The notes under the pieces: generated by a model | The model's database searches: none | What the model saw: the letters and a program-made list of their open reading frames with translations, nothing else | What the model was told of the DNA's origin: nothing | Assembly (NCBI GenBank): GCA_016209105.1 | Contig: JACQWR010000011.1 | Span: 132,216 to 196,215 of the forward strand | DNA: 64,000 bases | Source: Deltaproteobacteria bacterium | GTDB taxonomy: Bacteria > Desulfobacterota > Syntrophia > Syntrophales > JACQWR01 | Direction: 5' to 3' | Made by a program: the position numbers and the translations under genes | Part shown: positions 106 through 38,516 of the stretch, piece by piece | Layout of the letters: each line of letters opens with the position of its first letter | Position numbering within the stretch: the first letter of the stretch is position 1

Positions 106-124
106 TGTATAAAAATTTTATACA
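106..124. promoter_or_regulatory. Inverted repeat TGTATA-N7-TATACA, candidate enhancer-binding-protein (UAS) site upstream of fdh
   Basis: Read directly: tgtataaaaattttataca, about 120 bp upstream of the sigma54-like promoter at 241. A looser copy (cgtata-N6-tataca) lies at 3..20. The same half-sites recur at 38386..38404. Confidence 0.3.
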
Positions 125-240
125 TAATCGCCATTGTATAGCCTCCTCCCCTATCCTGTCTTATTACAAAAACAAACCAATTACACCATAAACAAACTAA
201 TTATACCACAATACATCGCAAACAGAGACGCCTCCCTTCA

Positions 241-256
241 TGGCATGTCCATTGCA
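241..256 (+). promoter_or_regulatory. sigma54 (-24/-12) promoter candidate TGGCAT-N5-TTGCA
   Basis: tggcatgtccattgca matches the TGGCAC-N5-TTGCW consensus with GG and GC correctly spaced. It lies about 200 bp upstream of the fdhA start at 454. Confidence 0.5.
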
Positions 257-453
257 CAATGGAAGGCGACATTACAGCGCCCTGCGGAAGGCGCGCACGC
301 TGTCGGATCATGAAAATAGCCAACCGGCAAAAGCTAAGGAGATCGTGGGAATAGAGAGAACCCCCTGTTCTGAATAATACCGATGAAACGAGATTAAATG
401 CTCACAGGAATAATTATCAGTAAATAATTCAATAGTGAAAGGAGGATGTAGTA

Positions 454-3400
454 ATGCGTATTACCAGACGAGGGTTTTTGAAAGTCTCGGGAACAGCATT
501 GGCCGCAAGCGGCATCGGCATAAATCTTAAGCCGGTAGCCGCCTATGCGAAACCGCTAAAAATCAAGTACGCGAAAGAAACCACCACCATCTGCCCATAC
601 TGTTCCGTGGGGTGCAGCATCATTGTGTCCACTACCAATGACGGCAAGGTCATCAACACGGAAGGCGATCCCGACAGCCCCATCAATGCGGGCGCCTTAT
701 GCAGCAAGGGTGGTTCCCTTTACCAGATGAATGTCAATGGCAGCCGCCTGGATAAGCCGCTCTACCGGGCGCCTTACGCAAGCGAATGGAAAGAGGTGTC
801 CTGGGAATGGGCGTTGGATAAAATCGCCAAAAATGTCAAGAAAAACAGGGATGAAAGTTTCCATTTGACAAACGCCAAGGGACAGACGGTTAACCGTACC
901 GAGGGTATCGCGTCCGTGGGAAGCGCGGCCATGGATAATGAAGAATGTTATCTGTATCAAAAATTCTTAAGGGGGTTGGGTCTGGTCTATATTGAACACC
1001 AGGCCCGTATCTGACACAGCGCTACTGTAGCGGCTCTGGCAGAGTCGTTCGGACGCGGCGCAATGACGAATCACTGGGTAGATTTTCAAAATAGTGACTG
1101 CATTTTAATTATGGGCAGCAACCCGGCTTCCAATCACCCCATATCCTTCAAGTGGATAACGAAGGCGGTGGAAAAAGGGGCGAAGCTCATCTGTGTTGAC
1201 CCGAGATTTACACAATCAGCAGCCAAGTCGCATATTTACGCCCCCTTGCGTTCGGGGACGGATATCGCCTTTCTGGGCGGCATGATCAAATACATCCTGG
1301 ATAATAACCTTATCCAAGAAGAATATGTGAAAAATTACACGAACGCCACCTTCCTTGTTAATCCGGCCTTAAAGCTCCCCGGCGACAACAGCGGCGTTTT
1401 TTCCGGACTGAAGGGTGAAGCCTATGACAAAACCACCTGGTCCTATCAAACCGATGCCGATGGCAAGATTAAGAAAGACAGCACCTTGCAGGATGCTAAT
1501 TCCGTGTATCAATTGTTGAAAAAACACTACTCGCGCTATACGCCGGAAATGGTATCCAGGATAACAGGTACGCCCAAGGACAAGTTGCTTGAAGTCTATA
1601 AAGAATTCTCAAAAACAGGCCAGCGCGATAAGGCGGGGAACATCCTCTATGCCATGGGTTGGACACAGCATACCGTAGGCACCCAAAACATCCGGGCAAT
1701 GTCCATTATACAATTGCTGCTCGGAAATATGGGAATGGCCGGCGGCGGCGTTCAGGCGCTGCGCGGCGAAGGAAATGTGCAGGGTTCGACGGATTACGGA
1801 CTCCTCTTCCATATCCTCCCGGGCTATCTGGCAACGCCTCTGGCAACCCAAACGACACTGGCACTCTATAATGAGCAGAAGACACCAAAAACCAAAGAGC
1901 CGAACAGTCTAAACTGGTGGAAAAATTACCCCAAATACAGCGCCAGCTTACTGCGTTCCCACTACGGCATGAATGCCTCCCTGGATGAAGCCTACTCCTA
2001 TTTGCCCAAACTGGACCCCGGCGTCAATTACTCATGGCTTGCGCTCTTTGACCAGATGTACAAAGGCAAGTTCACCGGTTTCTTCGCCTGGGGCATGAAT
2101 CCGGCGGGAAGCGGCGCCAATTCCAATAAAGTACGGCAGGCGCTGGCAAAGGTTGACTGGATGGTCAACGTAAACCTTTTCGACAACGAAACAGGCTCCT
2201 TCTGGCACGGCCCCGGCATGGATCCGAAAAAAATCAAGACCGAAGTTTTTATGCTGCCCTGCGCCGCTTCTCTTGAGAAGGAGGGAAGCATTACCAACAG
2301 TGGACGGCTGATGCAATGGCGTTATAAAGCGGTCAACCCGCCGGGAGAGGCCAAGCCGGATGCTGAGATAATGACAGAGCTTTATTTCAAGATTAGGGAT
2401 TTGTATGAAAAAGAAGGCGGCCCCCTCAAAGAAGCCATTACCAAGTTGACCTGGAATTACGGAGAGGCGGGAAGCGACGGCAGGATAAAGCATCTGGATA
2501 TCCACGCGGTGGCCAAGGAGATCAACGGCTATTTTCTTGAAGACAAGGTTGATCAGGGGAGTAAGCGGGCCTTTAAGAAGGGCGATCCCGTGCCCTCCTT
2601 TGCGTTTCTCCAGGACGACGGTTCCACCTCTTCGGGATGCTGGATCTACTGTAATTCCTATGCCGATAAGAACATGGCCGCCAGAAGAGGCACAAAAGAT
2701 CCCTCCGGGCTTGGTCTTTACTCTGAATGGGCATGGAGCTGGCCCGTGAACCGCAGAATCATCTATAACGGCGCCTCCGTTGATCTCAAGGGCAATCCCT
2801 GGGATCCGAAACGCGCAGTGATCGCCTGGGATGGAACCAAATGGGTGGGCGACGTGCCGGATGGCGTCGGCAACCCCGGTTCGGGGAGGCCCCCCTTCAT
2901 CATGAAGCCCGACGGCGTGGCAAGTATTTTCGGGCCGGGTTTAACTGATGGTCCTTTCCCGGAACATTATGAACCGCTGGAAAGCCCCCTGGCAAAAAAT
3001 TTGATGTCGCCTCAAATGGTCAACCCTGCCGTCAAGCGGTGGGATAAGTCGGGGGTGGGAACGAAACTGGATATCGCACGAAGCGGCGATTCCCGTTTCC
3101 CTATCGTCTGCTCTACCTACCGGGTAAGCGAACATTGGCAAAGCGGTGTCCTTACAAGATGGCAACCCTGGCTGGTGGAAATGCAGCCAGCCCTGTTCGT
3201 GGAGATAGGACCGGAATTGGCCAAGGAAAAGAAAATTAAAAACGGAGAGAAGGTCGTTGTTAAATCCGCCCGGGGCGAGGTAGAGGCCGTGGCCATGGTC
3301 ACAGACAGATTCAAGCCTTTTGCCATAGACGGCAAAAAAGTCCACGAAATCGGACTGCCCTGGCATTTTGGCTGGGCAACGTCAGCCGAAAGGAAATACG

Positions 3401-3540
3401 GGGCTAAAGACAAGAAACCGGAGCTGTTCACCCAGGGTGATTCGGCAAATCTTCTTACCCCGACAATAGGGGATGCCAATACCATGATTCCGGAAAGCAA
3501 GGCCTTCATGGTTAATCTCGTCAGGAAGGGGGTGGCTTAA
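454..3540 (+). CDS. fdhA: Formate dehydrogenase catalytic (alpha) subunit, periplasmic, selenocysteine-containing molybdopterin enzyme. ORFs 454..1014 and 1063..3540 are one gene read through UGA at 1012..1014.
   Basis: Twin-arginine signal (MRITRRGFLK). N-terminal Cys cluster CPYCSVGC. Both ORFs are in the same frame. The stop context translates as HQARI-U-HSATVAALAESFGRGAMTNHW, the classical FdnG/FdhA Sec motif. The rest is a molybdopterin oxidoreductase. Confidence 0.93.
1012..1047 (+). other. UGA selenocysteine recoding site plus candidate SECIS hairpin
   Basis: In-frame TGA at 1012..1014 at the conserved Sec position. Downstream, ggctctggcagagtc (1032..1046) can form a short stem-loop with a G-rich apical loop. 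The fold was assessed by eye only. Confidence 0.55.
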
Positions 3541-4296
3541 ATGGCCGAACAAATTCAGCTCATTGACACATCAAAATGTACGGGTTGCCGGGGTTGCCAA
3601 GTTGCCTGCAAGCAGTGGAACCAGTTATCGGCCCGGCAGACAACCAACAAAGGCTCTTATCAGAATCCGCCAGATCTTCAGGAAAATACCTGGACGCTTG
3701 TCCGCTTCCGGGAAGTTTCGGAGCAAGACGGCAGGGTGAAATGGACCTTCCGAAAAGACGGGTGTCTGCATTGCACCGACGCCACCTGCGTAAAGGTGTG
3801 CCCGGCCGGCGCCAGATTTCGTTTGAGTAATGGGGCGATAGGTACGGATAATGAAAAGTGCGTAGGCTGCCAGGCGTGCGTCGCTTCCTGTCCTTTCGAA
3901 AAATCCCGGTACTCGGAGGCGGCAAATAAGGCTTACAAATGCAACCTCTGCGCAGACAGGGTACAGGACGGCCTTCTCCCTGCCTGTGTTAAGGCCTGCC
4001 CCACGGGAGCGCTGAAATTTGGTGAAAGAGGGGAAATGCTCAAGTTGGCATACGCGCGGGTAAAGGAATTAGGAGGAGACGCCTCCGTTTACGGGGATAA
4101 ATTCTTCGGCGGAACGCATCTCATTTTTGTTCTTGAAGAAAAGGTTAATCTCTACGACGCCCTGCCCGCAAAACCAAAGGTCGCCTCTTCCGTTTTGTTC
4201 TGGAAGGATCTGCTGCAACCCTTTGGCTTGTGGGAGGCAGGCGCCGGAGTGGTGGTATCGTTTCTCTCCCGCAGCAGGATACACAGGACGGGATAG
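3541..4296 (+). CDS. fdhB: Formate dehydrogenase iron-sulfur (beta) subunit, 4x[4Fe-4S] ferredoxin type
   Basis: Start abuts the fdhA stop. Four Cys clusters are present: CTGCRGCQVACK, CLHCTDATCVKVCP, CVGCQACVASCP, CNLCADRV..ACVKACP. Confidence 0.9.
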   Translation: MAEQIQLIDTSKCTGCRGCQVACKQWNQLSARQTTNKGSYQNPPDLQENTWTLVRFREVSEQDGRVKWTFRKDGCLHCTDATCVKVCPAGARFRLSNGAIGTDNEKCVGCQACVASCPFEKSRYSEAANKAYKCNLCADRVQDGLLPACVKACPTGALKFGERGEMLKLAYARVKELGGDASVYGDKFFGGTHLIFVLEEKVNLYDALPAKPKVASSVLFWKDLLQPFGLWEAGAGVVVSFLSRSRIHRTG

Positions 4297-5137: not shown

Positions 5138-5140
5138 GAC

Positions 5141-6633: not shown

Positions 6634-6717
6634 TTAAAGCTCTCCGCAGCAAGCTGCGGAGAATCCTTGATTCCTAAGGAACAAGAACAGTTAAGCATGC
6701 GCTCGCTACCGAATTCA
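6634..6717. repeat. Intergenic repeat family A, short variant lacking the second hairpin
   Basis: ttaaagctctccgcagcaagctgcggagaatccttgattcctaaggaac...gcgctcgctaccgaattca. Sits between the ligase stop and the UbiD start. Confidence 0.7.
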
Positions 6718-9718: not shown

Positions 9719-9843
9719 GCAGGCTGCTCAAAAAGCCCAGATGCAAGGCCCCCGAAATACTTCGCCATGAGGCGTACTGTTGCGTACGTCGAATGGCGAA
9801 GGATGAGGGAAACGCCGCAGATGGGCATTTTTCAGCAGCCTGC
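9719..9843. repeat. Intergenic repeat family B (MITE/REP-like, terminal inverted repeats)
   Basis: Ends gcaggctgctcaaaaa ... tttttcagcagcctgc are inverted, with an internal palindrome cttcgccatgaggcgtac..gtacgtcgaatggcgaag. Homologous copies lie at 43638..43884 and 62268..62393. Confidence 0.7.
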
Positions 9844-11027
9844 TAATCATTTCTCTCCAGGACCATGACGCCCGCCATCGCGGCGGGTCCGCCCAGGCAA
9901 TGGGCAAGCCCCCGGCGCGCGTTCTTCACCTGCCGCTTGCCCGCCTTCTCCTGAAGCTGCTGCGTCACTTCGTACACCATGCGGATACCCGAAGCGCCCA
10001 GCGGATGACCAAAGGCCTTTAAGCCGCCATCGGTGTTTACCGGCAGCTCCCCTCCCAAGGAGGTCACCCCCTCCTCGATCAGCTTCCATCCCTGGCCCTT
10101 CGGGGCAAACCCCAGGTCTTCATAGTTCAGTATCTCCGTAATCGTAAAACAGTCATGACACTCCGCCATGTCGATCTCCCGGCGGGGGTCCTTCACGCCC
10201 GCCTGTTCATACGCCATCCGGGCGGCCGTCTGGGTTACCTTGAAATTGAGAAAATCAAAGCCCGGCTCAAAAATGTTGCGTTCCGTCCCCACCGCAAACC
10301 CGATGCCCGCCACCTTGACGAAGTCGGGATTGAAGTTCTTCGCCATATCGGCGCGGGTAACGATTGCCGCCGCGGCCCCGTCGCAGCTTGCCGTGGAATC
10401 CAGCACGGAAAGCGGTTCTGCAACCCAGGGCGACTTGAGCACGTCTTTCAGGGTGATTTCCCGCTGCATGTTGGCCTTCGGGCTCAGGGTGCCGTGGTGG
10501 TGATTCTTTACCGCCACCTTGGCCAGCGTTTCCCGGCCGATGCCGTATTCATGGAAATACCGATGGGCGCAGCTGGCAAAAAAACTGGGGGCCGTTCGTC
10601 CCTTGCCGATCAGGGGATGGCCGTCGGTACGGTTGGCGAGCATTAGGCTCCGGGAGCCGGCATCGCGCATCTTCTCCACGCCCACAGCCAGGGCAACATC
10701 ATACATGCCGGAAGACACGGCCAGGCAGGCATTCCTGAGGGCATCAATGCCCGTCGCGCAGATATTGGAAATCAGCGTCACCGGCTTGTAGAGGAAACCC
10801 AGCGCCTCGGCCAGAGGGCTGCCGATGTTCCGTTCTCCCGCAATCCAGGGACGATACGATCCCAGCCATGCCGCTTCCACCTCTTTGTGCAGCTCCACGC
10901 CCGCATCGGCGCAGGCCTCAAAGGTAGCATCCACCACGAGGTCGCCCCAGCTTTTGGTGAAATGCTCGCCGAATTTGGTACAGCCCACACCGATAATGGC
11001 AACCGGTTCTTTCATTACACCCGACAT
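9843..11027 (-). CDS. Thiolase-superfamily protein, SCP-x / archaeal acetoacetyl-CoA thiolase / BbsB type
   Basis: Nucleophile context SNICATG. C-terminal GHPLGASG and CLGGP motifs. Confidence 0.85.
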   Translation of the reverse strand: MSGVMKEPVAIIGVGCTKFGEHFTKSWGDLVVDATFEACADAGVELHKEVEAAWLGSYRPWIAGERNIGSPLAEALGFLYKPVTLISNICATGIDALRNACLAVSSGMYDVALAVGVEKMRDAGSRSLMLANRTDGHPLIGKGRTAPSFFASCAHRYFHEYGIGRETLAKVAVKNHHHGTLSPKANMQREITLKDVLKSPWVAEPLSVLDSTASCDGAAAAIVTRADMAKNFNPDFVKVAGIGFAVGTERNIFEPGFDFLNFKVTQTAARMAYEQAGVKDPRREIDMAECHDCFTITEILNYEDLGFAPKGQGWKLIEEGVTSLGGELPVNTDGGLKAFGHPLGASGIRMVYEVTQQLQEKAGKRQVKNARRGLAHCLGGPAAMAGVMVLERND

Positions 11028-11031
11028 ATTC

Positions 11032-12510
11032 CTACCTCCCTATGGCCGGTCTCGCCTTCCAGAAATAATTAGGCAGCTCCTGCCCGTCATGCAGCTTGCG
11101 GAAGCTGAGCTCCACATCCAGGCCGATACGCATATCCTGGGGATTCACATCAGTCACCTGGCAGAAGATGCGCCCGCCCCCTTCCAGATCAACGGCTGCC
11201 AGAGACTCCGGGGGGTCGGGATTGAGATACAGGTAATCATTCGTATAGGTATACACCCTCCCGCGGCGACTGAGCTTAAAATCTTCCATCTGGTCTTTCG
11301 CGCCGCAATGGTGGCAGACCCGGCGACGGGGGAAGGCAAGGGTGCCGCAGGCGGTGCATTTGACCCCGGTAAGCTTCATATTTTGCTTCTCCTCCCGCCA
11401 CAGCAGGGCCATGGAGGTAAAGGCATCGTAGGAACTCTCGCCGATCACATCGCGGAAGTTCAGATATTTCGCATAGCTGGTTAGTGGCCGCTGCCGCTTC
11501 AGGAATTCCGGGACGCCGCGGCAACCTTCCGCCTTGCCGATATTCTCGGTCACCCGAAGCAAGAACGCCTCGGCGCCGTCTCCGTACCCCGCGACAATCA
11601 GCCGCTCTCCCGGTTTTGCCTTGGCGAGCACTGCCGCGAGGCTCAAGAACACCTGCGCATTGCCGGTATCTCCGATGCTTTTCAGGAGGCCATCGGCCAG
11701 TTGCGTCTCCGGATTGAAACCGGCCTTGCGGGCAAGACGGACCGCCAGACGGGCATTGGGAGCATAGACAATCAGTTTGGCCACATCGCCCGCCGCGATT
11801 CCCGCCTTCTTAAGCAGCCCTTTCAACGCCTCATTCATGAGCGGGATATAGCCGTAATCCTCGACAAACCGCGCATCCGTCGTCTGCACGTAGGGATCCT
11901 GTTCGCGCCGCCAGAAGTGGGGAAAATTGGCATTCACGACAACGTGCGCTTCCACACCGGCCAGGACATTTTCCCGTCCCACAAGCACCGCCGCCGCCCC
12001 GTCCCCGAATGCCTGCTCCTCACCGGAAGCGGGGGCAGCCATCCGACGGTCGCTGGCCACGACCAGGGCCGCATCGGCAGGCGAGCCTTCCTTGAGGGCG
12101 CCAACCGCCATGCCGAGAGCCGTCATGCCGCCCCTGAGACTGCCGTTTATGTCCGTCACCAGCGCCGACCGATTCATATCCAAAACGGCAGCCAAAACGC
12201 TGGACGCGTGCTTTTCCCGATAGGGGGAACTGGCGCTGGCAAAAAAAAGGGCCGCCAAGTTCGTCGCGGCAAACGGAATGCCGAACGAGCGCGCATAATT
12301 ATCCGCACATTCCCAGCAAGCATCCACGCCCATCGTCAGGGCGTCCTCGTCGTACTGGGCCACCGCCCTCCCGCCGCCGGACGCCCGCGCCCCCGTTGCC
12401 TGGGCAATGACCTCACGGGACAGGCGATATGCCGGCACATAAACCCCGAAAGCTGAGATTCCTACCACGTTCTTCACCTCACGTTGCTGTTGATAATCCC
12501 TTGTTGACAC
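11032..12510 (-). CDS. Fusion of an HMG-CoA-synthase/KAS-III-like domain (apparently degenerate active site) with a C-terminal DUF35 zinc-ribbon/OB-fold domain
   Basis: The N-terminal ~350 aa look HMGCS-like. The C-terminus has CTACGTLAFPRRRVCHHCG (rubredoxin-like ribbon) plus an OB fold typical of DUF35. It sits next to a thiolase, as in thiolase/HMGCS/DUF35 and BbsAB-type complexes. Confidence 0.75.
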   Translation of the reverse strand: MSTRDYQQQREVKNVVGISAFGVYVPAYRLSREVIAQATGARASGGGRAVAQYDEDALTMGVDACWECADNYARSFGIPFAATNLAALFFASASSPYREKHASSVLAAVLDMNRSALVTDINGSLRGGMTALGMAVGALKEGSPADAALVVASDRRMAAPASGEEQAFGDGAAAVLVGRENVLAGVEAHVVVNANFPHFWRREQDPYVQTTDARFVEDYGYIPLMNEALKGLLKKAGIAAGDVAKLIVYAPNARLAVRLARKAGFNPETQLADGLLKSIGDTGNAQVFLSLAAVLAKAKPGERLIVAGYGDGAEAFLLRVTENIGKAEGCRGVPEFLKRQRPLTSYAKYLNFRDVIGESSYDAFTSMALLWREEKQNMKLTGVKCTACGTLAFPRRRVCHHCGAKDQMEDFKLSRRGRVYTYTNDYLYLNPDPPESLAAVDLEGGGRIFCQVTDVNPQDMRIGLDVELSFRKLHDGQELPNYFWKARPAIGR

Positions 12511-13872
12511 TCACCCTGCCGCTTTAAACGGTCCTCTCGCCAGCATGGCGTTGACATCCTCCGCCCTCATGGCGTAACGGAGCAGAAACTCCTCATCGTC
12601 CATATCGGCGCCGGCCCCGATTTGCCTGCGCAGTTCCGCAATGGACGGCTGGGGAAATTCCTCTGCCATCATTTTCTTCACCTTGGGAACGCTCGTTATC
12701 TTATCCAGGATCGTGGGATCAATCGGCACCGGGGAAGGGCCGAAGTATCCGGCGACATATTCCATAACGCCGCTCGATATCACTTTATACCGCTCCCCGG
12801 ACATGACGTTCATCGTTGCCTGGCTTCCCACCATTTGCGAAAGGGGCGTCACCATGATGGGCCAGCCCAGTTCCTTGCGCACCCGGATGATCTCTTCCAT
12901 GACTTCCGGCAGACGATCCTCCATCTTCCCCTCTTTCAACTGGCGCTTCATGGTGCTTACCATCCCTCCGGGCAGCTGATGCTCGTAAATGGAGATGTCA
13001 TACTCGAACGGCACGCCCCGCGGCTTGCCCGTTTTTGCCGCCACCTCCTCCAGATAGGAAGCCATCGCGGCAAGCGCCTCGGCATTAATCTTGGCCGTAT
13101 ATCCCATATATTTAATGTTGTTCAGGATGTTATATATGGAGGGCTGGGCGGTGCCGTTGGCCACCGGCGGCACACCGGTGTGGACGATGTGGACGCCCAT
13201 GCGAATGGCCTCAAGATAGACGAGCGGCGCCAAGCCGGTATTGCAGTGGGAATGGATTTCCAGTGTCTTGCCGTTCAGGTGGGCCTGCACCGCCGGAACC
13301 AGCGTCTTGATCCGCTCCGGCGTCAGAAGACCTCCCTGATCCTTGATGTATACCGTATTCACGTCGGGATCATGGGTCAGCTCCCCGGTAAGGCGGCCGA
13401 AAAATTCATCGGTATGGACGGGACTGAGCGAAAAGGAGAGGGCGATAACCGTTTCTTCGATGCCGACTGCCTTGCACATGTGCGCCACCTTGAGCAGCGA
13501 TGAAACCTCATGGGCGGCGTCCAGTATCCATACCCGTCTGATGCCGTTGGCCTTCATACGCTTAATCACCAGTGCGAGGATGGAATCGGGCGTCCGCTTG
13601 AATCCGATGAAGCGCCGGCTCGTCGTCCCAAAGCTCAAGGGGGTGTCCGGCATGGCTTGCACGGCCAGGCGCACCCGCTCCCAAGGATTTTCCCGGTGGT
13701 AGCGGACAGCGGTATCCATACCGGAATTGCTGATAAAATCCACCGCCCGGAACCCCACCTTGTTCACCTGGGGGGCAATGGCCAGAACATCGCCCGTGGT
13801 GATTCCCGTGGCATCCCAGAGCGACTGGTTTCCGTCTCTGAGACTGGTGTCAATGAACTGTATTTCTTGCAT
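12511..13872 (-). CDS. Carboxyltransferase of the pyruvate carboxyltransferase / oxaloacetate decarboxylase alpha / transcarboxylase 5S type, without a biotinyl domain
   Basis: IQFIDTSLRDGNQS, YIKDQGGLL (carbamyl-Lys context) and EIHSHCNTG (HxH). Preferred start is ATG at 13872, preceded by AAGGAGAAAACT; the ORF track start is 13893. Confidence 0.85.
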   Translation of the reverse strand: MQEIQFIDTSLRDGNQSLWDATGITTGDVLAIAPQVNKVGFRAVDFISNSGMDTAVRYHRENPWERVRLAVQAMPDTPLSFGTTSRRFIGFKRTPDSILALVIKRMKANGIRRVWILDAAHEVSSLLKVAHMCKAVGIEETVIALSFSLSPVHTDEFFGRLTGELTHDPDVNTVYIKDQGGLLTPERIKTLVPAVQAHLNGKTLEIHSHCNTGLAPLVYLEAIRMGVHIVHTGVPPVANGTAQPSIYNILNNIKYMGYTAKINAEALAAMASYLEEVAAKTGKPRGVPFEYDISIYEHQLPGGMVSTMKRQLKEGKMEDRLPEVMEEIIRVRKELGWPIMVTPLSQMVGSQATMNVMSGERYKVISSGVMEYVAGYFGPSPVPIDPTILDKITSVPKVKKMMAEEFPQPSIAELRRQIGAGADMDDEEFLLRYAMRAEDVNAMLARGPFKAAG

Positions 13873-30202: not shown

Positions 30203-31600
30203 TCACTTCTCTTCCAGGCCGAACTTCTTCAGTTGATACCGGAAGGAATCGTAGCTGACGTTCAGGAGTTTCGCGGCCTTGGTCTTGTTGTGCGCTGATT
30301 TTTCCAGGGCTTGAATAATCAGATCTTTTTCCAATTCATCGAGGGAAATACCCGCCTCCGGCAATACGAACCGCGCGGACGACGCGCTTTCTTGCTGCGA
30401 GGCCAACCCGCTGATTTCCAGCGGCAAGTGCCCCGGCATGATAAACTTACTGTTTTGCAGCACAATCATCCCCCGAATCACGTTTTTCAATTCCCGCACG
30501 TTGCCGGGCCACCGGTAATTTCTCATCAATTCCTCGGTCTCCGGGGCAAATCCTTCCACCGGCTTGTTATATTCCTTTGCAAAAGCTGATAGAAAATGTC
30601 GGGCTAAGGCGGTGATGTCCTCTTTCCGTTCCCGTAAGGGAGGAATCACCAGGGAAAAGGCATTCAGGCGGTAATACAGGTCCGCACGGAAATCTCCCTT
30701 TTCCATCGCATCGAGCAGATTTCTGTTGGTTATCGCAATAACCGTGACATCAACGGAGATTTCTTCCTGACCGCCGATCCTCCTTACCACCCTCTCTTCC
30801 AGTACGCGAAGAAGCTTGCTCTGCAGGCTCGGCTTCATCTCGCCTATCTCATCGAGAAGCAGCGTTCCCCCGTCGGCCACCTCAAACAGTCCCTTCTTGC
30901 TTTTGTGCGCGTCGGTAAATGAACCCTTCTCGTAACCGAACAGTTCACTCTCCAAAAGGGTGTCGGGAAGAGCGCTGCAGTTCACCGCGATGAAGGGAGC
31001 GGAAACGCTTGCCGCCGCGCCATGCATCATCCGGTGGATGTTGCGGGCGATGACATCCTTGCCGACGCCGCTTTCTCCCGTGATAAGGACGCTTGAAACG
31101 CGGGCTTCCGCTATCCGAGCGACTTTTTCCTTCAACTCTTTCCTGGCGCTTGAGATGCCCAGAAAATCTTTTTCAAAAAGGGATGCGCTGATGTTTCTCA
31201 GGTATTCCAGTTCGTTTTTCAGCTTTACGTTTTCAACGGCATTGGCGATGACAATTCTTATTTCATCTATGTTGAACGGTTTGGTCAGATAATTCCACGC
31301 ACCGATCTTCATGGCTTTCACGGCGGTTCCCGCCGTATCGTCGGCAGTCAGCATAATGACTTCCAGAGGCAGTCCTTCTTTTTTCAATTCTTGAAGCATG
31401 TCCATCCCGTTTTGCCCCGGCAGGCCGATGTCCAGCAAAATCACATCGGGATGCCACTGCCTGATCTTTTCCACGAGGGCGGCCCCGCCGGTTGCAGAGC
31501 GCACCTCGTATCGCTCCTTTTTCAGAACACGCGAAAGCACGTCCAGAATTAATTCATCGTCGTCTACGAGATAGATTCTCCCCCGGTTTTTCACATCCAC
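30203..31600 (-). CDS. sigma54-dependent response regulator (REC + AAA+ + HTH), NtrC family
   Basis: REC domain with [19 protein letters not shown] Walker A, EKGSFTDA (GAFTGA-like loop) and a C-terminal Fis-type HTH. Confidence 0.9.
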
Positions 31601-31610
31601 GCCCCTTAAC

Positions 31611-32459
31611 CTATGTTGTGCCTCCGTAACTGTGAAGTCCCGAAAGGATCAGGTTGACCCCAAGATAACAAAAAATGGTTGCCATAAAACCCACAATGGA
31701 AAGCGCCGCCGCCTTTTTCCCCCGCCACCCCCTGGTGATCCTCGCATGCAGGTACGCCGCATAGATGAACCAGACGATAAGCGACCAGGTCTCCTTGGGG
31801 TCCCAGCTCCAGTATGTCCCCCAGGCCACGTTCGCCCAGAAAGCGCCGGTAATGATGCCGATCGTCAGGAGCGGAAAGCCGATGGCGATGGTTTTATAAC
31901 CCACTTCGTCAAGGAGGTCGGAAGACGGCAGGTGCCCCGAAAAAGCGCCCGCTTGTTTTAAGGACCTGTTTTCGGCGTTAACCTTGAACAGGTAAAGCAC
32001 GCTCACGCCAAAGGATACGGCAAAGGCCGCGTATCCCACAAAGCAGGTCACCACGTGGGAAATCAGCCAGTTGCTCTGGAGCGCCGGCACCAACGGCTGG
32101 ATCTCATTGGGATTCAGCGATGCATAGGCCATGATGATGAACGGGAAGGGCGTCACAAATGCCCCGGCCGTCTTGATCCCGAATTTTCTCTCCATGACGA
32201 GGTAGATGATGGCGATCGTCAAGGCGAAAAAAACGAGCGATTCATAGAGATTGGTAAGAGGCGCCCTGCCAATCCCCATCTGGTACGATTCGTACCATCG
32301 TAGCAGTATCGCCGCGGTCTCGATGATCACCCCCGCGAGAAGCGCAAGGGTGCAAATCTTGCCCAGCGTCTCGGATCTGAACGCCAGGTACGATACGTAA
32401 AGCACCATGGAGAAAAAATACACAAATATGGAAATCCCGAACAGTAATGAATTTGTCAT
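31611..32459 (-). CDS. ccsA: Cytochrome c biogenesis System II heme-handling protein CcsA/ResC
   Basis: Polytopic membrane protein with the Trp-rich WWD-like motif [13 protein letters not shown]. Confidence 0.85.
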
Positions 32460-33848
32460 CTAAGAAACCTCCTCCGAAATCTCCCGTAAACTTCTCACCA
32501 ATCGTTCCATCTCGCTGGAAAAAGCTTGTTTATTTTTATTGGTCGTTCCGCCGGTCGTAACTTCCACACGGCCTTTCTTATCCTTCCCTATCCTGATCCA
32601 GAGCTTTTTATGCGCCATAAAAAAAGCCATCATGATGCCTGCCACGAGCATAACGCACCCTGTCCACACGATCCAGACCCCGGGATCCTTGTTGACCTGC
32701 AATCCCGTATATCTTTTTATCTTCATGTCTTTCACCACGAACGAATGCGTACCGTCGCGGTTCAGCCCCGGCTGCGTTCCCACAATCCATATTCCTTCAG
32801 GCGGGGCGCCGGCGCTGTAGATATTCACGCCGATCGCCGGTCCCCCTTCGGAACCGTCAGGCCGGTGAAAATGCTCCTGGTAATCGGCGACCTCGATCCT
32901 GACAATGCCGCCCGGTATGTCCACCTGCTTCCCAAAGGGGGCAAACACCGTGCCCCGTGAAACGCCGTTCCTATCCCTGATCTCAAATGTAACATCGGGA
33001 AATCCGCCGTAACTTGACTGATAGAAGGTTATGCCCTCGTAGCTTAGAGGGTCATTGACGCGGATCGTTTTCCGTATCGCTTCTTTTCCATCCTTTATGA
33101 TGGCAAGGTCGCTCCGGTAATCCTTCGGGGCACCGGTATCATAAAAATCAACGCTGAAGGAATTGCACTTCACGGAGAACCCCAGGGTTCTGGTTTCTCC
33201 CTTCCTGGTCTGAACGGAAGAGATCATTTCTCCTTCATTTATGTTCACATACCCCTTAAACCCGATGAGGGAACCGGTTATGGCGCCGATAAAAATAACA
33301 ATGACGCTTAAGTGCGTTAAAAAGAAAGAAAGCCGGCTATATTTCCCCTTCTCATAGAAAAAGTGCCTTGCATGTTCTTCCTCGGTCACCACGGGACGGC
33401 CGGTGAAATCTTTCCCGGCTATGGCCTTTACCTGTTTTTCCACCGTTTCGGCGGGAAGGTTATATTTCATCTTCGCCAGGTTGGCTAATCCCGCCTCGAG
33501 TTTTTCATCCAGAACGACCTGTTGCGACTTCATCCCCCTCAGGATGAAAGGATAACGCTCCATCGTACAGGCAATGATGTTTAAGGCCAGCAGGGCCAGG
33601 CAGGAAGTAAACCACCAGCTGTGATACATATCCAGTAAACCGAGTTTACTGAACAGTTCAACCGTTTCCGGCCTGAATAAGTTGTAATATTCCGGCAGTG
33701 GTTTATTCTGTTCAATGATGGTGCCCGCCACTGATAAGAGGGAAAGAACAAGCAAAAGAAAAATAAGCAGTTTGAGGGAAGTAAAAAAATCCCAGACCTT
33801 ATCAATACTATCCCTCCCTTTTTTCTCCTGTTTTATTTCCTCCGACAT
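32460..33848 (-). CDS. resB: Cytochrome c biogenesis System II protein ResB/Ccs1
   Basis: ResB-like topology: N-terminal TM helices, a large periplasmic domain and a C-terminal TM helix. Stop abuts the ccsA start. Confidence 0.85.
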   Translation of the reverse strand: MSEEIKQEKKGRDSIDKVWDFFTSLKLLIFLLLVLSLLSVAGTIIEQNKPLPEYYNLFRPETVELFSKLGLLDMYHSWWFTSCLALLALNIIACTMERYPFILRGMKSQQVVLDEKLEAGLANLAKMKYNLPAETVEKQVKAIAGKDFTGRPVVTEEEHARHFFYEKGKYSRLSFFLTHLSVIVIFIGAITGSLIGFKGYVNINEGEMISSVQTRKGETRTLGFSVKCNSFSVDFYDTGAPKDYRSDLAIIKDGKEAIRKTIRVNDPLSYEGITFYQSSYGGFPDVTFEIRDRNGVSRGTVFAPFGKQVDIPGGIVRIEVADYQEHFHRPDGSEGGPAIGVNIYSAGAPPEGIWIVGTQPGLNRDGTHSFVVKDMKIKRYTGLQVNKDPGVWIVWTGCVMLVAGIMMAFFMAHKKLWIRIGKDKKGRVEVTTGGTTNKNKQAFSSEMERLVRSLREISEEVS

Positions 33849-33873
33849 GATAATCTCCTTAAAATACGTATAG

Positions 33874-33992
33874 TTGAAACTCTCCTCGGCAGACCGTGGA
33901 GGATCCTCGATTCTTAAGGAATAGTAATTTTAAGATTCGCCCGCCTACCCCAAAGCCAAGCTCAAGGGGGAATGCGCTCGCTGCCGAATCGA
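33874..33992. repeat. Intergenic repeat family A, diverged copy
   Basis: ttgaaactctcctcggcagaccgtggaggatcctcgattcttaaggaat...ccccaaagccaagctcaagggggaatgcgctcgctgccgaatc. Confidence 0.65.
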
Positions 33993-34101
33993 AGCCGCCG
34001 TTTATTGCAGCAAGCAACTCCCCCCTGTCCAGGGGAAAGGGAACATAATTTATATGCCAACGAAGCCTTGTCAAGGACAATAGCCGAGAATACCGGCAAG
34101 C

Positions 34102-34150
34102 AAAAAAAAGAAAAGCCCCCCGCCAGCACAAAGGGCATGGTGGAGGGCTT
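34102..34150 (-). terminator. Rho-independent terminator after the triheme cytochrome gene
   Basis: On the minus strand, an imperfect GC-rich stem (AGCCCTCCACC ... GGCGGGGGGCT) is followed by TTTTCTTTTTTTT. Confidence 0.5.
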
Positions 34151-34173
34151 CGATAATTACCGTATTTGCGCGC

Positions 34174-34491
34174 TTATTTCTTATGGCACTTGGCGCATTC
34201 AGCGGTGCCAAAGGCCTTCTTGCCGTCATGGCAGACACCGCAGTTCTTACCCGCTTTCATATCGGCCATAGTGATCTTCATCTCTTTTTTCATCTTGAAT
34301 GGAGCGGGATGACAGGCAGCACACTTCACTGTCGCGGGTGCTTTCCCCGCGTGTATTTTCCCGTCGAACACCACCTTTCCCGAACCGCCGCCAGCGTATT
34401 CCACCTTTTTCCCGGGCCCGGAAGCCAGAGAAACACCGGCAAGACCGAGAACAAAAACGGCTACGACTGCAAAAATCAACACCTTCTTCAT
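34174..34491 (-). CDS. Small periplasmic triheme cytochrome, c7 (PpcA-like) type
   Basis: Signal peptide plus three CXXCH motifs (CAACH, CGVCH, CAKCH). The MADMKAGKNCGVCHDGKKAFG module is shared with the nonaheme protein at 41846..42607. Confidence 0.85.
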   Translation of the reverse strand: MKKVLIFAVVAVFVLGLAGVSLASGPGKKVEYAGGGSGKVVFDGKIHAGKAPATVKCAACHPAPFKMKKEMKITMADMKAGKNCGVCHDGKKAFGTAECAKCHKK

Positions 34492-34668
34492 AAATCCTCC
34501 TTTAAATTTTCCAATTTATCGTGGCACTAAACGGCCGGTTACAAGCTTTCAGGGGAACATACGCGATCAGGTTGCCGACTGTCAAGTAAATTTTAGCGGC
34601 CCTCCTATCTTTCCGCTCAACCGGCGGGGTTTCACTTTTTACGAATGTAGCAGATTTTTCGCGAGATA

Positions 34669-34857
34669 TTAAAGATTCCCGCAGCAAGCGTTCACTTCCT
34701 TACCCCAAAACCAAGCTCAAGGGGGTGCGCTCGCTGCTGAATTGAAGCCCTCCGCAGCACACTGCGGAGGGTCTCCGATTTCCAAGGAACATTATTACTA
34801 TCATTCGCTCGCTTACCCCGCGGCTTGCCGCGGGGTAAGCGCTCGCTGACGAATTCA
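34669..34857. repeat. Intergenic repeat family A, tandem: a partial copy followed by a full copy
   Basis: The first unit runs 34669 to about 34746. The second unit, ttgaagccctccgcagcacactgcggagg...cgcttaccccgcggcttgccgcggggtaagcgctcgctgacgaattca, follows directly. Confidence 0.7.
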
Positions 34858-34954
34858 TCTTGACTATATCCTGTCTCATACCATAAAAGATTTACCGTAT
34901 CTTTATAATCATCCAGCGCTGAACCGCTTATTTTTGAAAACGGAAAGGGAAAAC

Positions 34955-36529
34955 GTGCGACTGAAGCTTATCTCCAAACTGACCATATCCGCCAGCGCAG
35001 TGCTGATTATCTTCATGGCCATTTTTGCCTACGTCAACCTCGCTACCATGCGCAAACTCCTCCTGGAAGAGGCTATTTTGGATGCGGACAAGCTGAGTGA
35101 AACCATCATCAAAACAACCCACTACCAAATGCTGGAGGATGACCGGGAACGAGTTTATCAGATGATAAGCGAAGTCGGGACCCAGGCCGACATCGAGAGG
35201 ATACGCCTGATAACGAAGGAGGGAATCACCATTTTTTCCACAGACAAAAATGAGATCGGCGCCTTCCTCGATAAAAAAGCGGCGGCCTGCAACATGTGTC
35301 ACGCCGGTGAGAAACCCCTGCTGCACGCATCTTCCATGAACAGGAGCCGTGTTTTTCGCGTCGGGGAAAATAAAGAAGTCCTCGGCATGGCCAAGGCAAT
35401 CTACACCGAGAAGAAATGCTATACCGCCCCCTGCCATTTCCACCCCAAAGACGCACGGATTCTGGGGGTGCTTGATGTCATAGTTTCTCTCGACGGCATG
35501 CACCGCCAACTCGCTTCTTACCGCAACAAGATAATCGTAGCCGCCATCATTCTGCTGGGGATCACCTCGCTTTGTCTTTCCCTTTCCTTGCGACAGCTCG
35601 TCAGCAAGCCGGTGAAGCAACTGCTCCGGCAAACGGAGAAGCTTTCCCGGGGCGAGATGGACGACAGCATTAATTTCTCCTCCGCCGATGAACTGGGAGA
35701 ACTGGCTAATTCCTTTAATATTATGACGCAAAAGCTGAAGAATGCGAGGAATGAATTGGAAGAATGGGCAAGGACATTGGAAGTGAGGGTTGAAGAGAGA
35801 GGCAGAAAACTCAAGCAGATACAATCCCAACTCGTGCGCTCGGAAAAGCTTGCCTCCCTGGGCAAGCTGGCGGCGGGCGTCGCCCATGAAATCAACAACC
35901 CGCTCACCGGCATATTGATGTTTGCGTCACTGACACGCAAAAACGAAAATCTTGAGCCGTCCGTTAAAAATGACCTGGATATGATCATCACAGAAACACA
36001 GCGCTGCGCCCAGATTGTCAAGGGTCTACTCGACTTTTCCCGGGAATCGGTGCCCCAGAAGAAACCGTCATCCATAAACGCTATCATGGATGCCACGCTG
36101 GCCCTGATTGAAAATCAGTCCCGCTTTCAAAATATAGCCATCACCCGTGAATATAGCCAGGAAATCCCGCACGTTCTTGTTGACCCCAACCAGATAGAAC
36201 AGGTTTTTGTCAATATGCTCTTAAACGCCAGCGATGCCATGCCCAGTGGAGGCAAAATTCTGATAAAAACGGACACACGGGAAAACCATGTCCGCGTAAC
36301 GATAACCGACACCGGAACCGGGATCAGCGAGGAAAACCTGGAGAAAATATTCGACCCGTTTTTCACCACGAAGGATGCCAGGGGAACCGGTCTTGGTCTA
36401 TCCGTTTCCTACGGAATCATTGAAAGCCATGGCGGAAAGATAGAAGTGGAAAGCGCGGTTGGGATCGGAACAACCGTCACGATCATTCTTCCCCTTCCGG
36501 AGGGGAATACCTATGCGGGAAATCCTTAG
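34955..36529 (+). CDS. Sensor histidine kinase with a periplasmic heme-c-motif sensor domain, HAMP, HisKA and HATPase domains
   Basis: TM - periplasmic domain with CNMCH and CYTAPCH - TM - HAMP - H-box VAHEINNPL - N/G boxes. Preferred start is GTG at 34955; the ORF track start 34934 is TTG. Confidence 0.85.
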   Translation: MRLKLISKLTISASAVLIIFMAIFAYVNLATMRKLLLEEAILDADKLSETIIKTTHYQMLEDDRERVYQMISEVGTQADIERIRLITKEGITIFSTDKNEIGAFLDKKAAACNMCHAGEKPLLHASSMNRSRVFRVGENKEVLGMAKAIYTEKKCYTAPCHFHPKDARILGVLDVIVSLDGMHRQLASYRNKIIVAAIILLGITSLCLSLSLRQLVSKPVKQLLRQTEKLSRGEMDDSINFSSADELGELANSFNIMTQKLKNARNELEEWARTLEVRVEERGRKLKQIQSQLVRSEKLASLGKLAAGVAHEINNPLTGILMFASLTRKNENLEPSVKNDLDMIITETQRCAQIVKGLLDFSRESVPQKKPSSINAIMDATLALIENQSRFQNIAITREYSQEIPHVLVDPNQIEQVFVNMLLNASDAMPSGGKILIKTDTRENHVRVTITDTGTGISEENLEKIFDPFFTTKDARGTGLGLSVSYGIIESHGGKIEVESAVGIGTTVTIILPLPEGNTYAGNP

Positions 36530-36600: not shown

Positions 36601-38049
36601 TTAGTTGCCGTTATGGTTCCGAACAGATATTCCGAGTTTCTTCAGGAGGGCATGAAAATTCGGCCGAAGCATTCCCGTCTCCTCCGCGGCCTTGGTAATG
36701 TTCCAGTTGTTCCTCTCCAAAGCGCTTAAGACAAAAGCTTTTTCTATGTTTTCCACCGCTTGTTCGCGAATTTGACGCTTTGTCTCCTTCAATTCGTCGA
36801 GGTTTTGGGGAACAAAACCAATGGCCTTGAGTTTTTCAGCGGAAAGGGGCAGTTCCAGATCCTGCTTCTGAATAATATCACCCGTACAAAGCACAACCGC
36901 CCGCTCAATGATATTTTCCAACTCGCGCACATTCCCCGGGAAGGGATACTCTTCCAGCAGAGACAATGCCTCCGGATGCACCCCCCGCAGTTCCTTGCCT
37001 GTTTCTTCCGCATATTTCTTCAGGAAGCGACCAATGAGCAGCGGCAGGTCCCCTTTTCTTTCCCGGAGGGGCGGCAATTGAATGGGTATGACGTTGAGAC
37101 GAAAAAAAAGATCCTCCCGGAAACTGCCTTCCGCAACCTGTGTGCGCAGGTTCCTGTTCGTAGCCGCCACCAGACGTATATCTATGGAAATCAACTTCGT
37201 ATCGCCGATCGGCGTAATTACCCGTTCCTGCAGGACACGCAAAAGTTTCGCCTGGGTAGCCAGGCTGATGTTCGCGATCTCATCCAGGAAGAGGGTGCCG
37301 CCGTCGGCCACCTTGAAGAGACCCATTTTGGTCTGGATGGCGCCGGTGAAAGAACCCTTTACGTGCCCAAAAAGCTCGCTCTCCAGCAGGTTTTCGGCCA
37401 GAGAAGTGCAGTCCACCGCAACAAAGGGCTGTTCGCGCCGGTGACTGTTCTTATGAATGGCACGGGCCACCAATTCTTTTCCCGTGCCGCTTTCGCCGCT
37501 GATCAGTACGGTGCTGTCCGTGGGGGCGACCTGGATGATACGATTATATACCTTCTGCATCTCCGGACTTTCCCCCACAAACAAATCAAATCCGTGATGC
37601 TCAATGACCTCTTGCTTCAGATAGATATTTTCCAGGAGCACGGTCTTCTGGGCAATGGCATTTCGGGCCTTTTCACTGATCTGCTCCGCAGTGAAGGGTT
37701 TGGCGATGTAATCGAAGGCGCCGTTTTTCATGGCTTCCACGGCCGTATCAACCGTGGAGTAGCCGGTAATAAGAATGACGGGAACTTCTGGCTGAAGCAC
37801 CTTTATGGCCTTCAGGACCTCGATGCCGTCCATCCCGGGCATTTTCAGGTCCGTGATAACCAGATCAAAGCTCTTCCCCTGTATTGCCTCGATCGCCACA
37901 TAGCCGCTGGCAGAGGTGTCCACAGCGTACCCGTCCGCCTCAAGGATACGGCGCATGCCTTCCCGTATTACGGCTTCGTCATCCACAACCAGGATATTAA
38001 ACCGGTCTCCTGTCTCTGTAACCATTGTTCCGGCAACCCCTTCCGGCAT
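36601..38049 (-). CDS. sigma54-dependent response regulator (REC + AAA+ + HTH), NtrC family
   Basis: REC domain with DLVITDLKMPG, GESGTGKE, VKGSFTGA and a C-terminal HTH. Convergent with the kinase gene. Confidence 0.9.
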   Translation of the reverse strand: MPEGVAGTMVTETGDRFNILVVDDEAVIREGMRRILEADGYAVDTSASGYVAIEAIQGKSFDLVITDLKMPGMDGIEVLKAIKVLQPEVPVILITGYSTVDTAVEAMKNGAFDYIAKPFTAEQISEKARNAIAQKTVLLENIYLKQEVIEHHGFDLFVGESPEMQKVYNRIIQVAPTDSTVLISGESGTGKELVARAIHKNSHRREQPFVAVDCTSLAENLLESELFGHVKGSFTGAIQTKMGLFKVADGGTLFLDEIANISLATQAKLLRVLQERVITPIGDTKLISIDIRLVAATNRNLRTQVAEGSFREDLFFRLNVIPIQLPPLRERKGDLPLLIGRFLKKYAEETGKELRGVHPEALSLLEEYPFPGNVRELENIIERAVVLCTGDIIQKQDLELPLSAEKLKAIGFVPQNLDELKETKRQIREQAVENIEKAFVLSALERNNWNITKAAEETGMLRPNFHALLKKLGISVRNHNGN

Positions 38050-38385
38050 TAGAGTAGAGATCCTCTCCCCCTTAGAGTCGGGATATTAAACGGTACCACT
38101 GGCAGGGGATTTTAGATGAAAGCCACCGATATATCAAGTTAAATCAGCAACCACTCAACCATCATTGTATTATTCATTATTGGCGGCGTATTGCGGTTCC
38201 GGTGGTTTGGAAAAACAAACTTTAGGTGAACCGTAAATCAGAACCTCAGTGCGTTCTTAACCGGCAAGAAAACCGACCCCAAACGTATTTTTTTTCTATA
38301 CACCTTCCTCCTTATGCTAAAGTATTTATTATTAAAGGTATTATAATCCCCCCACCCTGTATCCTCCCCTCTTCGGCCCCGGCTG

Positions 38386-38404
38386 TGTATAGACTTTCTA
38401 TACG
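38386..38404. promoter_or_regulatory. Inverted repeat TGTATA-N7-TATACG, candidate UAS with the same half-sites as 106..124
   Basis: tgtatagactttctatacg lies about 100 bp upstream of the sigma54 promoter candidate at 38501. A looser copy (cgtat-N8-tataca) lies at 38284..38302. Confidence 0.3.
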
Positions 38405-38500
38405 TTTTTCACTCCGCGGGTAATTGGCAGTCCTGGAACTTACAAATATTAACCATGTAATTTCAATAGGTTAAGTTTTATATCCCTATTGTTATCCCCC

Positions 38501-38516
38501 TGGCACAACCTATGCT
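38501..38516 (+). promoter_or_regulatory. sigma54 promoter candidate TGGCAC-N5-ATGCT
   Basis: tggcacaacctatgct, about 70 bp upstream of the ATG at 38585. Confidence 0.5.

Follow-up and report, generated by a model that had tools for sequence, protein, structure and literature searches.

A 64,000-nt stretch of contig JACQWR010000011.1, from a bacterium of the order Syntrophales, raises the question of whether two operons that stand apart in it, one for a formate dehydrogenase (fdhAB) and one for a set of cytochromes (cbc), answer to a single enhancer-binding protein (EBP). An earlier note on this DNA had drawn attention to inverted repeats of the form TGTATA-N7-TATAC upstream of a candidate sigma-54 promoter at either operon, and had pointed to the product of an NtrC-type regulator gene, divergent from the cytochrome genes, as the obvious candidate for their binder. 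Here the whole stretch (hereafter the window) is compared with loci and contigs fetched from other genomes (designated L001 to L102). We consider it likely from this comparison that both promoters are sigma-54 dependent and that both are activated by the regulator encoded at 36601-38049, a relative of BccR of Geobacter sulfurreducens. On this evidence the FdhAB and CbcBA systems would probably be switched on together.

Paired palindromes upstream of two sigma-54 promoters

The elements in question are the following.

3 to 20, unstranded: predicted distal enhancer site of fdh, CGTATATTTATTTATACA, T-rich, with an N6 spacer.
106 to 124, unstranded: predicted proximal enhancer site of fdh, TGTATAAAAATTTTATACA, with perfect half-sites (no mismatch in the GTATA/TATAC core).
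241 to 256, plus strand: predicted sigma-54 -24/-12 promoter of fdhAB, TGGCATGTCCATTGCA, a pattern match.
38284 to 38302, unstranded: predicted distal enhancer site of cbc, CGTATTTTTTTTCTATACA.
38386 to 38404, unstranded: predicted proximal enhancer site of cbc, TGTATAGACTTTCTATACG, no mismatch in the core.
38501 to 38516, plus strand: predicted sigma-54 -24/-12 promoter of the cbc operon, TGGCACAACCTATGCT, a pattern match.

All four repeats and both -24/-12 boxes were thus found in the sequence where the earlier note had placed them, and the copy at 3-20 is a looser one, as the note had said, its spacer being 6 nt and not 7. The palindrome at 106-124 extends into a 27-bp near-palindrome covering 102-128. 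The boxes at 241 and at 38501 have the features of sigma-54 promoters, a GG and a GC doublet with exactly 10 bp between them in a surrounding of the type TGGCAC-N5-TTGCW. The centres of the distal and proximal sites are separated by 103.5 bp in the fdh promoter and by 102 bp in the cbc promoter, and the centre of the proximal site lies 127 bp (fdh) or 107 bp (cbc) from the GG of the -24 element. The pattern TGGCA-N7-TGC has only three matches in the window, at 241 (+), 38501 (+) and 14092 (-), and no palindrome was found near the last one. Since the palindrome accompanies two of the three sigma-54 promoters, it marks those two specifically. Scans of both promoter regions for sigma-70 promoters gave nothing above chance, except for a conserved candidate belonging to the regulator gene (see below).

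Frequency of the palindrome in the window and in control loci

When up to one mismatch is allowed, GTATA-N7-TATAC occurs four times in the window, against an expectation of 0.31, and none of 100 shuffles reached four. Three of these matches fall within the two promoter regions, while the fourth (40419) lies inside cbcA. As a negative control, we used 72 loci encoding unrelated EBPs, amounting to 956 kb of DNA with a G+C content (55%) close to that of the window. These contained 11 one-mismatch matches, or 0.0115 per kb. Not one palindrome in the control DNA had a sigma-54 box as its partner at a distance of 60-160 bp downstream, whereas at least one such pair was present in every locus carrying the activator module, that is, a kinase and a BccR-type activator with enhancer pairs. 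The idea that the motif occurs at background frequency in AT-rich intergenic DNA, which the earlier note had held out against itself, is therefore contradicted on both counts, by the excess in the window and by the scarcity and lack of pairing in the controls.

Eighteen sites yield the 19-bp consensus tGTATA-(A/T-rich N7)-TATACa, in which position 6 is an A in 80% of the sites. A weight matrix was trained on the cbc-type and leader-type sites of other genomes, with the window and all fdh promoters left out. On this foreign-trained matrix the proximal fdh site of the window scores 28.0 bits, above every site used in the training, and the distal cbc site 18.1 bits; in the control loci, 16 bits are reached or exceeded at a rate of 0.004 per kb.

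A BccR-type activator and the layout of its predicted sites in other genomes

The genes for the candidate regulator and for its kinase, together with the presumed promoter of the former, are arranged as follows.

34934 to 36529, plus strand: sensor histidine kinase with HAMP, HisKA and HATPase domains, convergent with the activator gene.
36601 to 38049, minus strand: BccR-type EBP of the NtrC family (Pfam Response_reg, Sigma54_activat, AAA_lid_14, HTH_8).
38109 to 38137, minus strand: candidate promoter of the activator gene, sigma-70-like TTGATA-17-TAAAAT, proposed from a 10/12 consensus match only.

The protein encoded at 36601-38049 has the make-up of an NtrC-family EBP: a receiver that retains the acceptor Asp, an AAA+ domain with a GAFTGA-type loop and a C-terminal Fis-type helix-turn-helix (HTH). 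Its diagnostic stretches are DLKMPGMDG, GESGTGKE, ESELFGHVKGSFTGA and LFLDEI, with a GSFTGA loop and Walker A and B motifs. The kinase has two transmembrane segments and carries the heme-binding motifs CNMCH and CYTAPCH in its periplasmic domain. The earlier note had announced both an NtrC-type regulator divergent from the cytochrome cluster and a kinase with heme motifs, and both descriptions hold, the kinase gene running from 34934 to 36529.

According to the accessible text of the BccR paper (Joshi, Chan & Bond 2021; bioRxiv 10.1101/2021.04.15.440034), BccR (GSU0598) is required in G. sulfurreducens for the induction of cbcBA below about -0.21 V. A sigma-54 promoter is reported upstream of GSU0597, and the genes, which span GSU0597-GSU0593, follow in the order GSU0597, GSU0596, GSU3489, cbcA, cbcB, with BccR encoded divergently. 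The window matches this locus, as well as that of G. metallireducens (CP000148), in gene order, in the divergent activator and in the position of the sigma-54 promoter: genes for a small protein, a receiver-like protein, a second small protein, CbcA (seven hemes) and CbcB (a di-heme cytochrome b) diverge from the regulator gene. By this gene order and its domains, the regulator is a BccR-type activator of the NtrC family. G. sulfurreducens was not among the 120 best homologues in either search with the receiver-like protein; its place in the comparisons is taken by G. metallireducens GS-15 together with a G. uraniireducens-type contig.

The activator of the window is 90% identical to that of L098, 78-79% to the syntenic activators of G. 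metallireducens GS-15 and of the G. uraniireducens-type contig, and 72-76% to activators linked to fdh genes (72-75% for L084 and L086). The recognition region of the HTH, AAEETGMLRPNF[HYQ]ALLKKL, is common to cbc-linked and fdh-linked activators, with a single position varying. The kinase is 59-63% identical to the kinases that flank the module in L084, L086, L096, L099 and L100. The TTGATA-17-TAAAAT block has been kept between the window and L098 in a spacer that is otherwise diverged.

Orthologous loci were found via activator-bearing genomes and via homologues of the receiver-like gene. They are L004 (Geobacter sp. AOG1), L005 (a Geobacter metagenome-assembled genome, MAG), L008 (a delta-proteobacterial MAG), L094 (the G. 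uraniireducens-type contig), L099 (G. metallireducens GS-15, CP000148), L098 (the nearest relative of the window) and the Syntrophales-like contigs L096 and L100. The arrangement of two sites and a sigma-54 box, facing the operon's first gene, was seen in each of them, and altogether beside orthologous regulators in nine other loci, 11 other promoters having been examined. A proximal palindrome is situated 96-119 bp upstream of the GG in a TGGCAY-N5-NTGCW box, and a second palindrome, usually T-rich, lies farther up. The distance from site to site is 102-107 bp in eight of ten two-site promoters from other genomes, the exceptions being L084 (93.5 bp) and L098 (271.5 bp). In L009, where the activator is more distant (59% identical), there is one site, 93 bp upstream of the -24 box.

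The intergenic DNA of L098 has largely diverged from that of the window. Conservation persists there in islands, namely at the proximal site and at the -24/-12 box; the L098 version of the proximal cbc site, TGTATATACTTTCTATACA, is nearly identical although its flanks have changed. The cbc -24/-12 box is likewise kept in L004, L005 and L008. The T-rich distal variant with an N6 spacer, represented by the fdh distal site of the window, is also present in L084, L094, L098 and L099. The repeats thus behave as upstream activating sequences of an EBP do, being dyad sites at enhancer distance that are conserved along with the regulator and absent, as pairs with a sigma-54 box, from the control loci, which bears out the earlier note in reading them as EBP sites from their distance, tandem arrangement and symmetry. 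Altogether, these comparisons point to tGTATA-N7-TATACa as the sequence that the BccR-type activator encoded next to it is predicted to bind.

In three relatives (L004 11135, L008 11051 and L086 2780), the kinase gene likewise has one palindrome of high score (up to 24.5 bits) 45-160 bp upstream of it, which suggests that the sensor may be autoregulated there. The corresponding interval of the window (34492-34933) has no palindrome. In L008, an additional enhancer site with the box CGGCAC-N5-ATGCT is found beyond the kinase gene (11218-11460), before an extra gene for the small membrane protein of the leader; the first promoter of this locus precedes genes for an Fe-S-type complex, not cbcAB.

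The fdh promoter and its counterparts within the activator module

The genes served by the promoter at 241 are these.

454 to 3540, plus strand: fdhA, Tat-exported molybdopterin formate dehydrogenase catalytic subunit (Pfam Molybdop_Fe4S4, Molybdopterin, Molydop_binding).
3541 to 4296, plus strand: fdhB, 4Fe-4S subunit (Pfam Fer4_11, Fer4_7).

The product of fdhA begins with a Tat signal (RRGFLK), and its reading frame contains one internal TGA (1012-1014, codon 187) in the context HQARI-U-HS. The stretch 454-3540 is one gene, and the TGA stands in the classical selenocysteine context. No cytochrome b gene follows fdhB, the next genes (isochorismatase-like and UbiD) being on the opposite strand. 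Judged by these features, namely a Tat signal, a Mo-bisPGD subunit with UGA, an Fe-S subunit and no cytochrome b, the window FdhAB is a soluble periplasmic enzyme of the selenocysteine type.

Loci carrying fdh genes were gathered through protein homologues of FdhA and the contigs encoding them. In L084 and L086 (with L087), the kinase gene is followed by distal and proximal palindromes, the box TGGCATGACCATTGCA, three leader genes (for a small protein, a receiver-like protein and another small protein), a selenocysteine-type fdhA and fdhB, and the activator gene faces this operon from the far side. L083 presents the same arrangement viewed from the other end. The upstream region of fdh in the window aligns with those of L084 and L086 block for block: a distal N6 site (whose counterpart in L084 is CGTATATTTTTTTATACA), the proximal site, the box TATCCTGYC, a tract rich in A and CATGGCATGNCCATTGCA. 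The -24/-12 box of fdhAB is nearly identical to that of L084, L086 and L087. From this alignment, the fdh promoter of the window appears orthologous to the promoters that in L084 and L086 lie between the kinase and the activator. By the same comparison, the three leader genes that would stand between this promoter and fdhA have either been lost from the window or were never there.

In L100 and L101 the two cargoes are found side by side, in the order kinase gene, fdhAB, activator gene and cbcAB, with the activator gene facing fdhAB and with a clear two-site, sigma-54 promoter before cbcA. In L096, a single activator gene has a motif-bearing sigma-54 promoter on either side, one serving leader genes alone and the other cbcAB. 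The arrangements of L096 and L100 argue that regulons of several promoters are normal for a BccR-type protein. The motif is absent from a Geobacter-type FdnGHI locus (L088) and from an fdhAB locus beside a LuxR-type system (L102), and on this pattern not every fdhAB belongs to the regulon.

Some further traits of the fdh promoter region may be recorded. The TATCCTGYC box (150-160 in the window) lies just 3' of the proximal site in all three fdh-type promoters (window, L084 and L086), and TGTATCCTCCCC, which resembles it, is found upstream of the proximal cbc site (38358-38370). From the predicted start to the ATG, the fdhA leader measures about 190 nt (256-453), occupying the place where the relatives have three leader genes. 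An Rfam search of this leader returned no match, for instance to a molybdenum cofactor (Moco) riboswitch.

Alternative explanations

Several observations weigh against placing both promoters under the regulator at 36601-38049. For this organism, and for every fdh-type promoter, the case is built on sequence comparison. No motif was found in the direct vicinity of the genes for four close homologues of the activator (L003, L006, L007 and L010), whose targets may be situated at other places. The region upstream of fdh in L100 offers a weak site (13.9 bits) with a CGGCAT-type -24 box 36 bp away. The spacers of the promoters contain no conserved IHF consensus and have only A/T richness in common. 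In its accessible text, the BccR paper gives cbcBA as the main target and leaves formate dehydrogenase unmentioned (bioRxiv 10.1101/2021.04.15.440034). Finally, the window starts at the distal fdh site, and 143 bp could be recovered beyond position 1 (L001; short Logan contigs with the exact fdhA N-terminus or fdhB).

This truncation matters to the explanation in which one motif serves two regulators, with a kinase/activator pair dedicated to fdh located outside the window (for example upstream of position 1, as in the layout of L086) and acting in parallel or by cross-talk. We regard this as unlikely. The fdhAB operons of L084 and L086 do have a kinase and an activator of their own on their flanks, and the window promoter is orthologous to theirs. 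However, no activator gene follows fdhB in the window, unlike in L083, L086 and L100, and the 143 bp upstream hold a REP-like element and no 3' end of a kinase gene; in addition, having targets on both sides of a single activator is normal in this family, as L100 and L096 show. Even if a second paralogous regulator existed, it would probably bind at both places, as the recognition helices are virtually identical. A different kind of binder, such as a nucleoid protein or an HgtR-like repressor of GTATAC repeats, would make the link to the activator gene an indirect one. The attraction of HgtR is that its operator in Geobacter, GTATAC-N-GTATAC, is built on the same GTATA(C) half-site, exemplified by the footprinted gltA operator of G. 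sulfurreducens, TTGTATAC-A-GTATACTAA (PMC2817479), and that its expression is tied to BccR, since bccR deletion is described as derepressing hgtR more than 1000-fold in the accessible text of the BccR paper (bioRxiv 10.1101/2021.04.15.440034). Yet HgtR represses sigma-70 genes from operators that overlap promoters or transcription starts (PMC2817479), not from about 100 bp upstream of sigma-54 boxes; its half-sites are 1 nt apart (GTATA-N3-TATAC) where N7 is found here; and the motif has mostly an A, not a C, at position 6. No HgtR-type site was found at the fdh or cbc promoter, and the motif follows the activator gene through genomes well beyond Geobacter. The HgtR operator was accordingly rejected on spacing, position and lack of matches, and some other binder seems quite improbable to us.

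Two further activators encoded in the same 64 kb, a receiver-type EBP (30203-31600) and a PAS-type EBP (14470-15882), are bona fide sigma-54 activators and might in principle control one or both promoters. This is hardly to be expected, however: their identity to the BccR-type protein is only 39-47%, their HTH sequences are unrelated to its own, neither accompanies the motif in related loci, and the PAS-type gene adjoins a sigma-54 promoter of its own (14092, -) that lacks the motif. As to chance, A/T-rich palindromes can arise in A/T-rich intergenic DNA, the spacers are indeed rich in A/T, and one further match, at one mismatch, falls within cbcA. Nevertheless, a chance origin is effectively refuted by the shuffles, the control loci, the matrix scores and a position, pairing and spacing that are conserved across about a dozen genomes; the probability left to it is virtually nil. 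Activation of both promoters by the BccR-type regulator is the reading followed below. Of the earlier note's proposal that a single EBP co-regulates formate oxidation with the cytochrome cluster, the part well supported by sequence comparison is the co-regulation of fdh and cbc, favored by the orthology of the fdh promoter to in-module ones and by the single activator between fdhAB and cbcAB in L100. That a single EBP is involved is only probable, the window starting at the distal fdh site, and the direction of formate metabolism is not fixed by sequence.

A model for joint activation

We infer the following scheme for the redox signal, the binding of the regulator, the looping of the DNA and the functional reason for joint control. 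The heme-motif kinase would sense a reduced, low-potential periplasm and phosphorylate the regulator; a redox signal is suggested by the heme motifs together with the low-potential induction of cbcBA in G. sulfurreducens. Dimers of the regulator would then bind tGTATA-N7-TATACa through the Fis-type HTH, both palindromes being occupied, on the same helical face and some ten turns apart. By looping over the A/T-rich spacer, the AAA+ ring would reach the sigma-54 polymerase, and the GSFTGA loop would drive open-complex formation. As no IHF consensus is conserved, the bending of the DNA may be intrinsic. The regulon would comprise at least two units, one made up of the leader genes with cbcA, cbcB, the c7-type cytochrome and a sensor, the other of FdhAB.

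Because FdhAB lacks a membrane subunit, a link to the menaquinone pool through periplasmic c7-type cytochromes and CbcA/CbcB is plausible, in either direction. Known cargoes of the module are cbcAB, fdhAB, the two together, and Fe-S/NrfD complexes. Tentatively, and with more doubt than confidence, we would go further and view the kinase/BccR-type activator with its enhancer pairs as a portable module for low potentials that exchanges its cargo from lineage to lineage; soluble FdhAB, c7-type cytochromes, CbcA and the FdnI-like CbcB could then form a split formate:menaquinone oxidoreductase, which might run in reverse near the thermodynamic limit and pass electrons to CO2, as formate for a syntrophic partner. 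The shared enhancer, and the embedding of fdhAB in the module of Syntrophales-like relatives, would tie the formate/CO2 couple to a low-potential branch of electron transport. This bears on formate as an electron carrier in syntrophy and on how an FdhAB without an anchor reaches the quinone pool.

Relation to known systems

It is the cytochrome CbcBA that enables Geobacter to respire close to the energetic limit, and no regulator of it other than BccR is known. Both BccR and its target cbcBA have been published, and the general kind of system, an NtrC-family activator acting from dyad enhancers on a sigma-54 promoter, is already known. The binding motif with its two-site geometry appears to be new, as do the place of the periplasmic selenocysteine FdhAB as a predicted member of the regulon and the variation of cargo between lineages. 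The accessible text of the BccR paper (bioRxiv 10.1101/2021.04.15.440034) contains no binding site and no discussion of a kinase, whereas a pair of 19-bp palindromes and an unlinked fdhAB target are predicted here. In the searchable literature, we found no description of a BccR binding site or of a regulon beyond cbcBA, and no mention of GSU0598 in other papers. Once a 19-bp motif is defined, the regulon can be predicted for every genome of the group.

The system resembles NtrC/glnAp2, DctD and ZraR in its receiver, AAA+ and Fis-type HTH domains, in palindromes placed about 100 bp or more upstream of -24/-12 elements, and in having several sites per promoter. NtrC recognizes TGCACC-N5-GGTGCA. 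The site sequence here is different, tGTATA-N7-TATACa, and its two copies are separated by about 103 bp instead of adjoining each other. A further parallel is the DVU3142 regulon of D. vulgaris (the ohcBAC octaheme cytochrome complex), in which the activator is divergent from a sigma-54-driven operon for periplasmic cytochrome, Fe-S and cytochrome b proteins, and in which sites were predicted by comparative genomics (Kazakov et al. 2015, PMC4641369). Its regulator lineage and cargo are different, formate dehydrogenase is not part of it, and the accessible text of that paper does not state the motif sequence.

As regards formate dehydrogenase, fdnG of G. sulfurreducens (GSU0777) has an RpoN-dependent sigma-54 promoter confirmed by primer extension, with no activator named in the accessible text (Leang et al. 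2009, PMC2725144). The likeness to the fdh operon of the window is that of a sigma-54-transcribed formate dehydrogenase operon in the same bacterial group. The enzyme of G. sulfurreducens differs from FdhAB, however, being a membrane-bound FdnGHI with its own cytochrome b, and the fdnGHI locus of L088 lacks module genes as well as the motif.

The cytochrome operon and its leader genes

The genes downstream of the promoter at 38501 are as follows.

38585 to 38830, plus strand: leader gene 1, for a small membrane protein of 81 aa that corresponds to GSU0597 (identity of 52-57% to the first module gene in L004, L084 and L086).
38880 to 39284, plus strand: leader gene 2, receiver-like protein of 134 aa, counterpart of GSU0596, with a weak Pfam Response_reg match.
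39312 to 39557, plus strand: leader gene 3, for a second small membrane protein of 81 aa that corresponds to GSU3489 (identity of 61-66% to leader gene 3 in L084 and L086).
40134 to 41189, plus strand: cbcA, seven-heme c-type cytochrome (Pfam cytochrome c families, 7 CXXCH), 57-63% identical to L004 and L005.
41192 to 41827, plus strand: cbcB, di-heme cytochrome b of the FdnI/HybB family (Pfam Ni_hydr_CYTB), 71-77% identical to L004 and L005.
41846 to 42607, plus strand: nine-heme cytochrome with three c7-type units (Pfam Cytochrome_C7 three times, 9 CXXCH).
42718 to 43539, plus strand: membrane sensor without a kinase, paralogue of the periplasmic heme domain of the kinase (CVECH, CYNAACH) with HAMP.

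By gene order and similarity, the genes from 38585 to 41827 are the Geobacter cbcBA (Cbc5) operon; the earlier note had not identified the cytochrome cluster and its regulator with the published cbcBA/BccR system. For the third leader gene, an overlapping open reading frame (ORF) at 39227 was set aside in favor of 39312-39557. The second leader gene, for which 454 homologues were found, encodes a pseudo-receiver: the acceptor Asp is replaced by Gly in all four aligned homologues, whereas both EBP receivers of the window retain it. The nine-heme cytochrome gene is syntenic in L004, L005, L008, L094, L096, L098 and L099, and the kinase-less sensor is held at the same position in these seven loci; its product may modulate the kinase.

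An internal sigma-54 promoter before cbcA, as seen at L098 4151, is absent from the window, where the spacer is filled by REP-like elements. In L096/L097 (9526-10713) the leader cassette forms a sigma-54 unit of its own, with a perfect palindrome and no cargo, and the activator gene separates it from cbcAB. This cargo-free unit argues that the leader cassette is an independent functional unit.

Neighbouring genes and repeated elements

On the minus strand beside the kinase gene (30203-34491) are genes for a c7-type triheme cytochrome, a small ORF, ResB, CcsA and the second receiver-type sigma-54 activator; a cytochrome-maturation cluster with its own EBP thus adjoins the BccR module. The third sigma-54 box, TGGCATGCATATTGC (14092-14106, -), is downstream of the PAS-type activator gene (14470-15882, -) and upstream of a cluster of carboxylase, thiolase-like and OB-fold genes (9843-13893), and presumably has an enhancer of its own.

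Intergenic DNA also contains scattered REP-like palindromes rich in G+C, which belong to two families, CGCTTACCCCGCGGCTTGCCGCGGGGTAAGCG and TTCGCCGCAGCAAGCTGCGGAG, with none expected by chance. Some lie within the cbc operon, in the gap that separates cbcA from the leader genes. Their positions are given below.

Window: 6640-6663, 18880-18911, 21425-21519, 34740-34841, 39560-39665 and 54241-54272.
L086: 2640-2740.
L001: 1-45.

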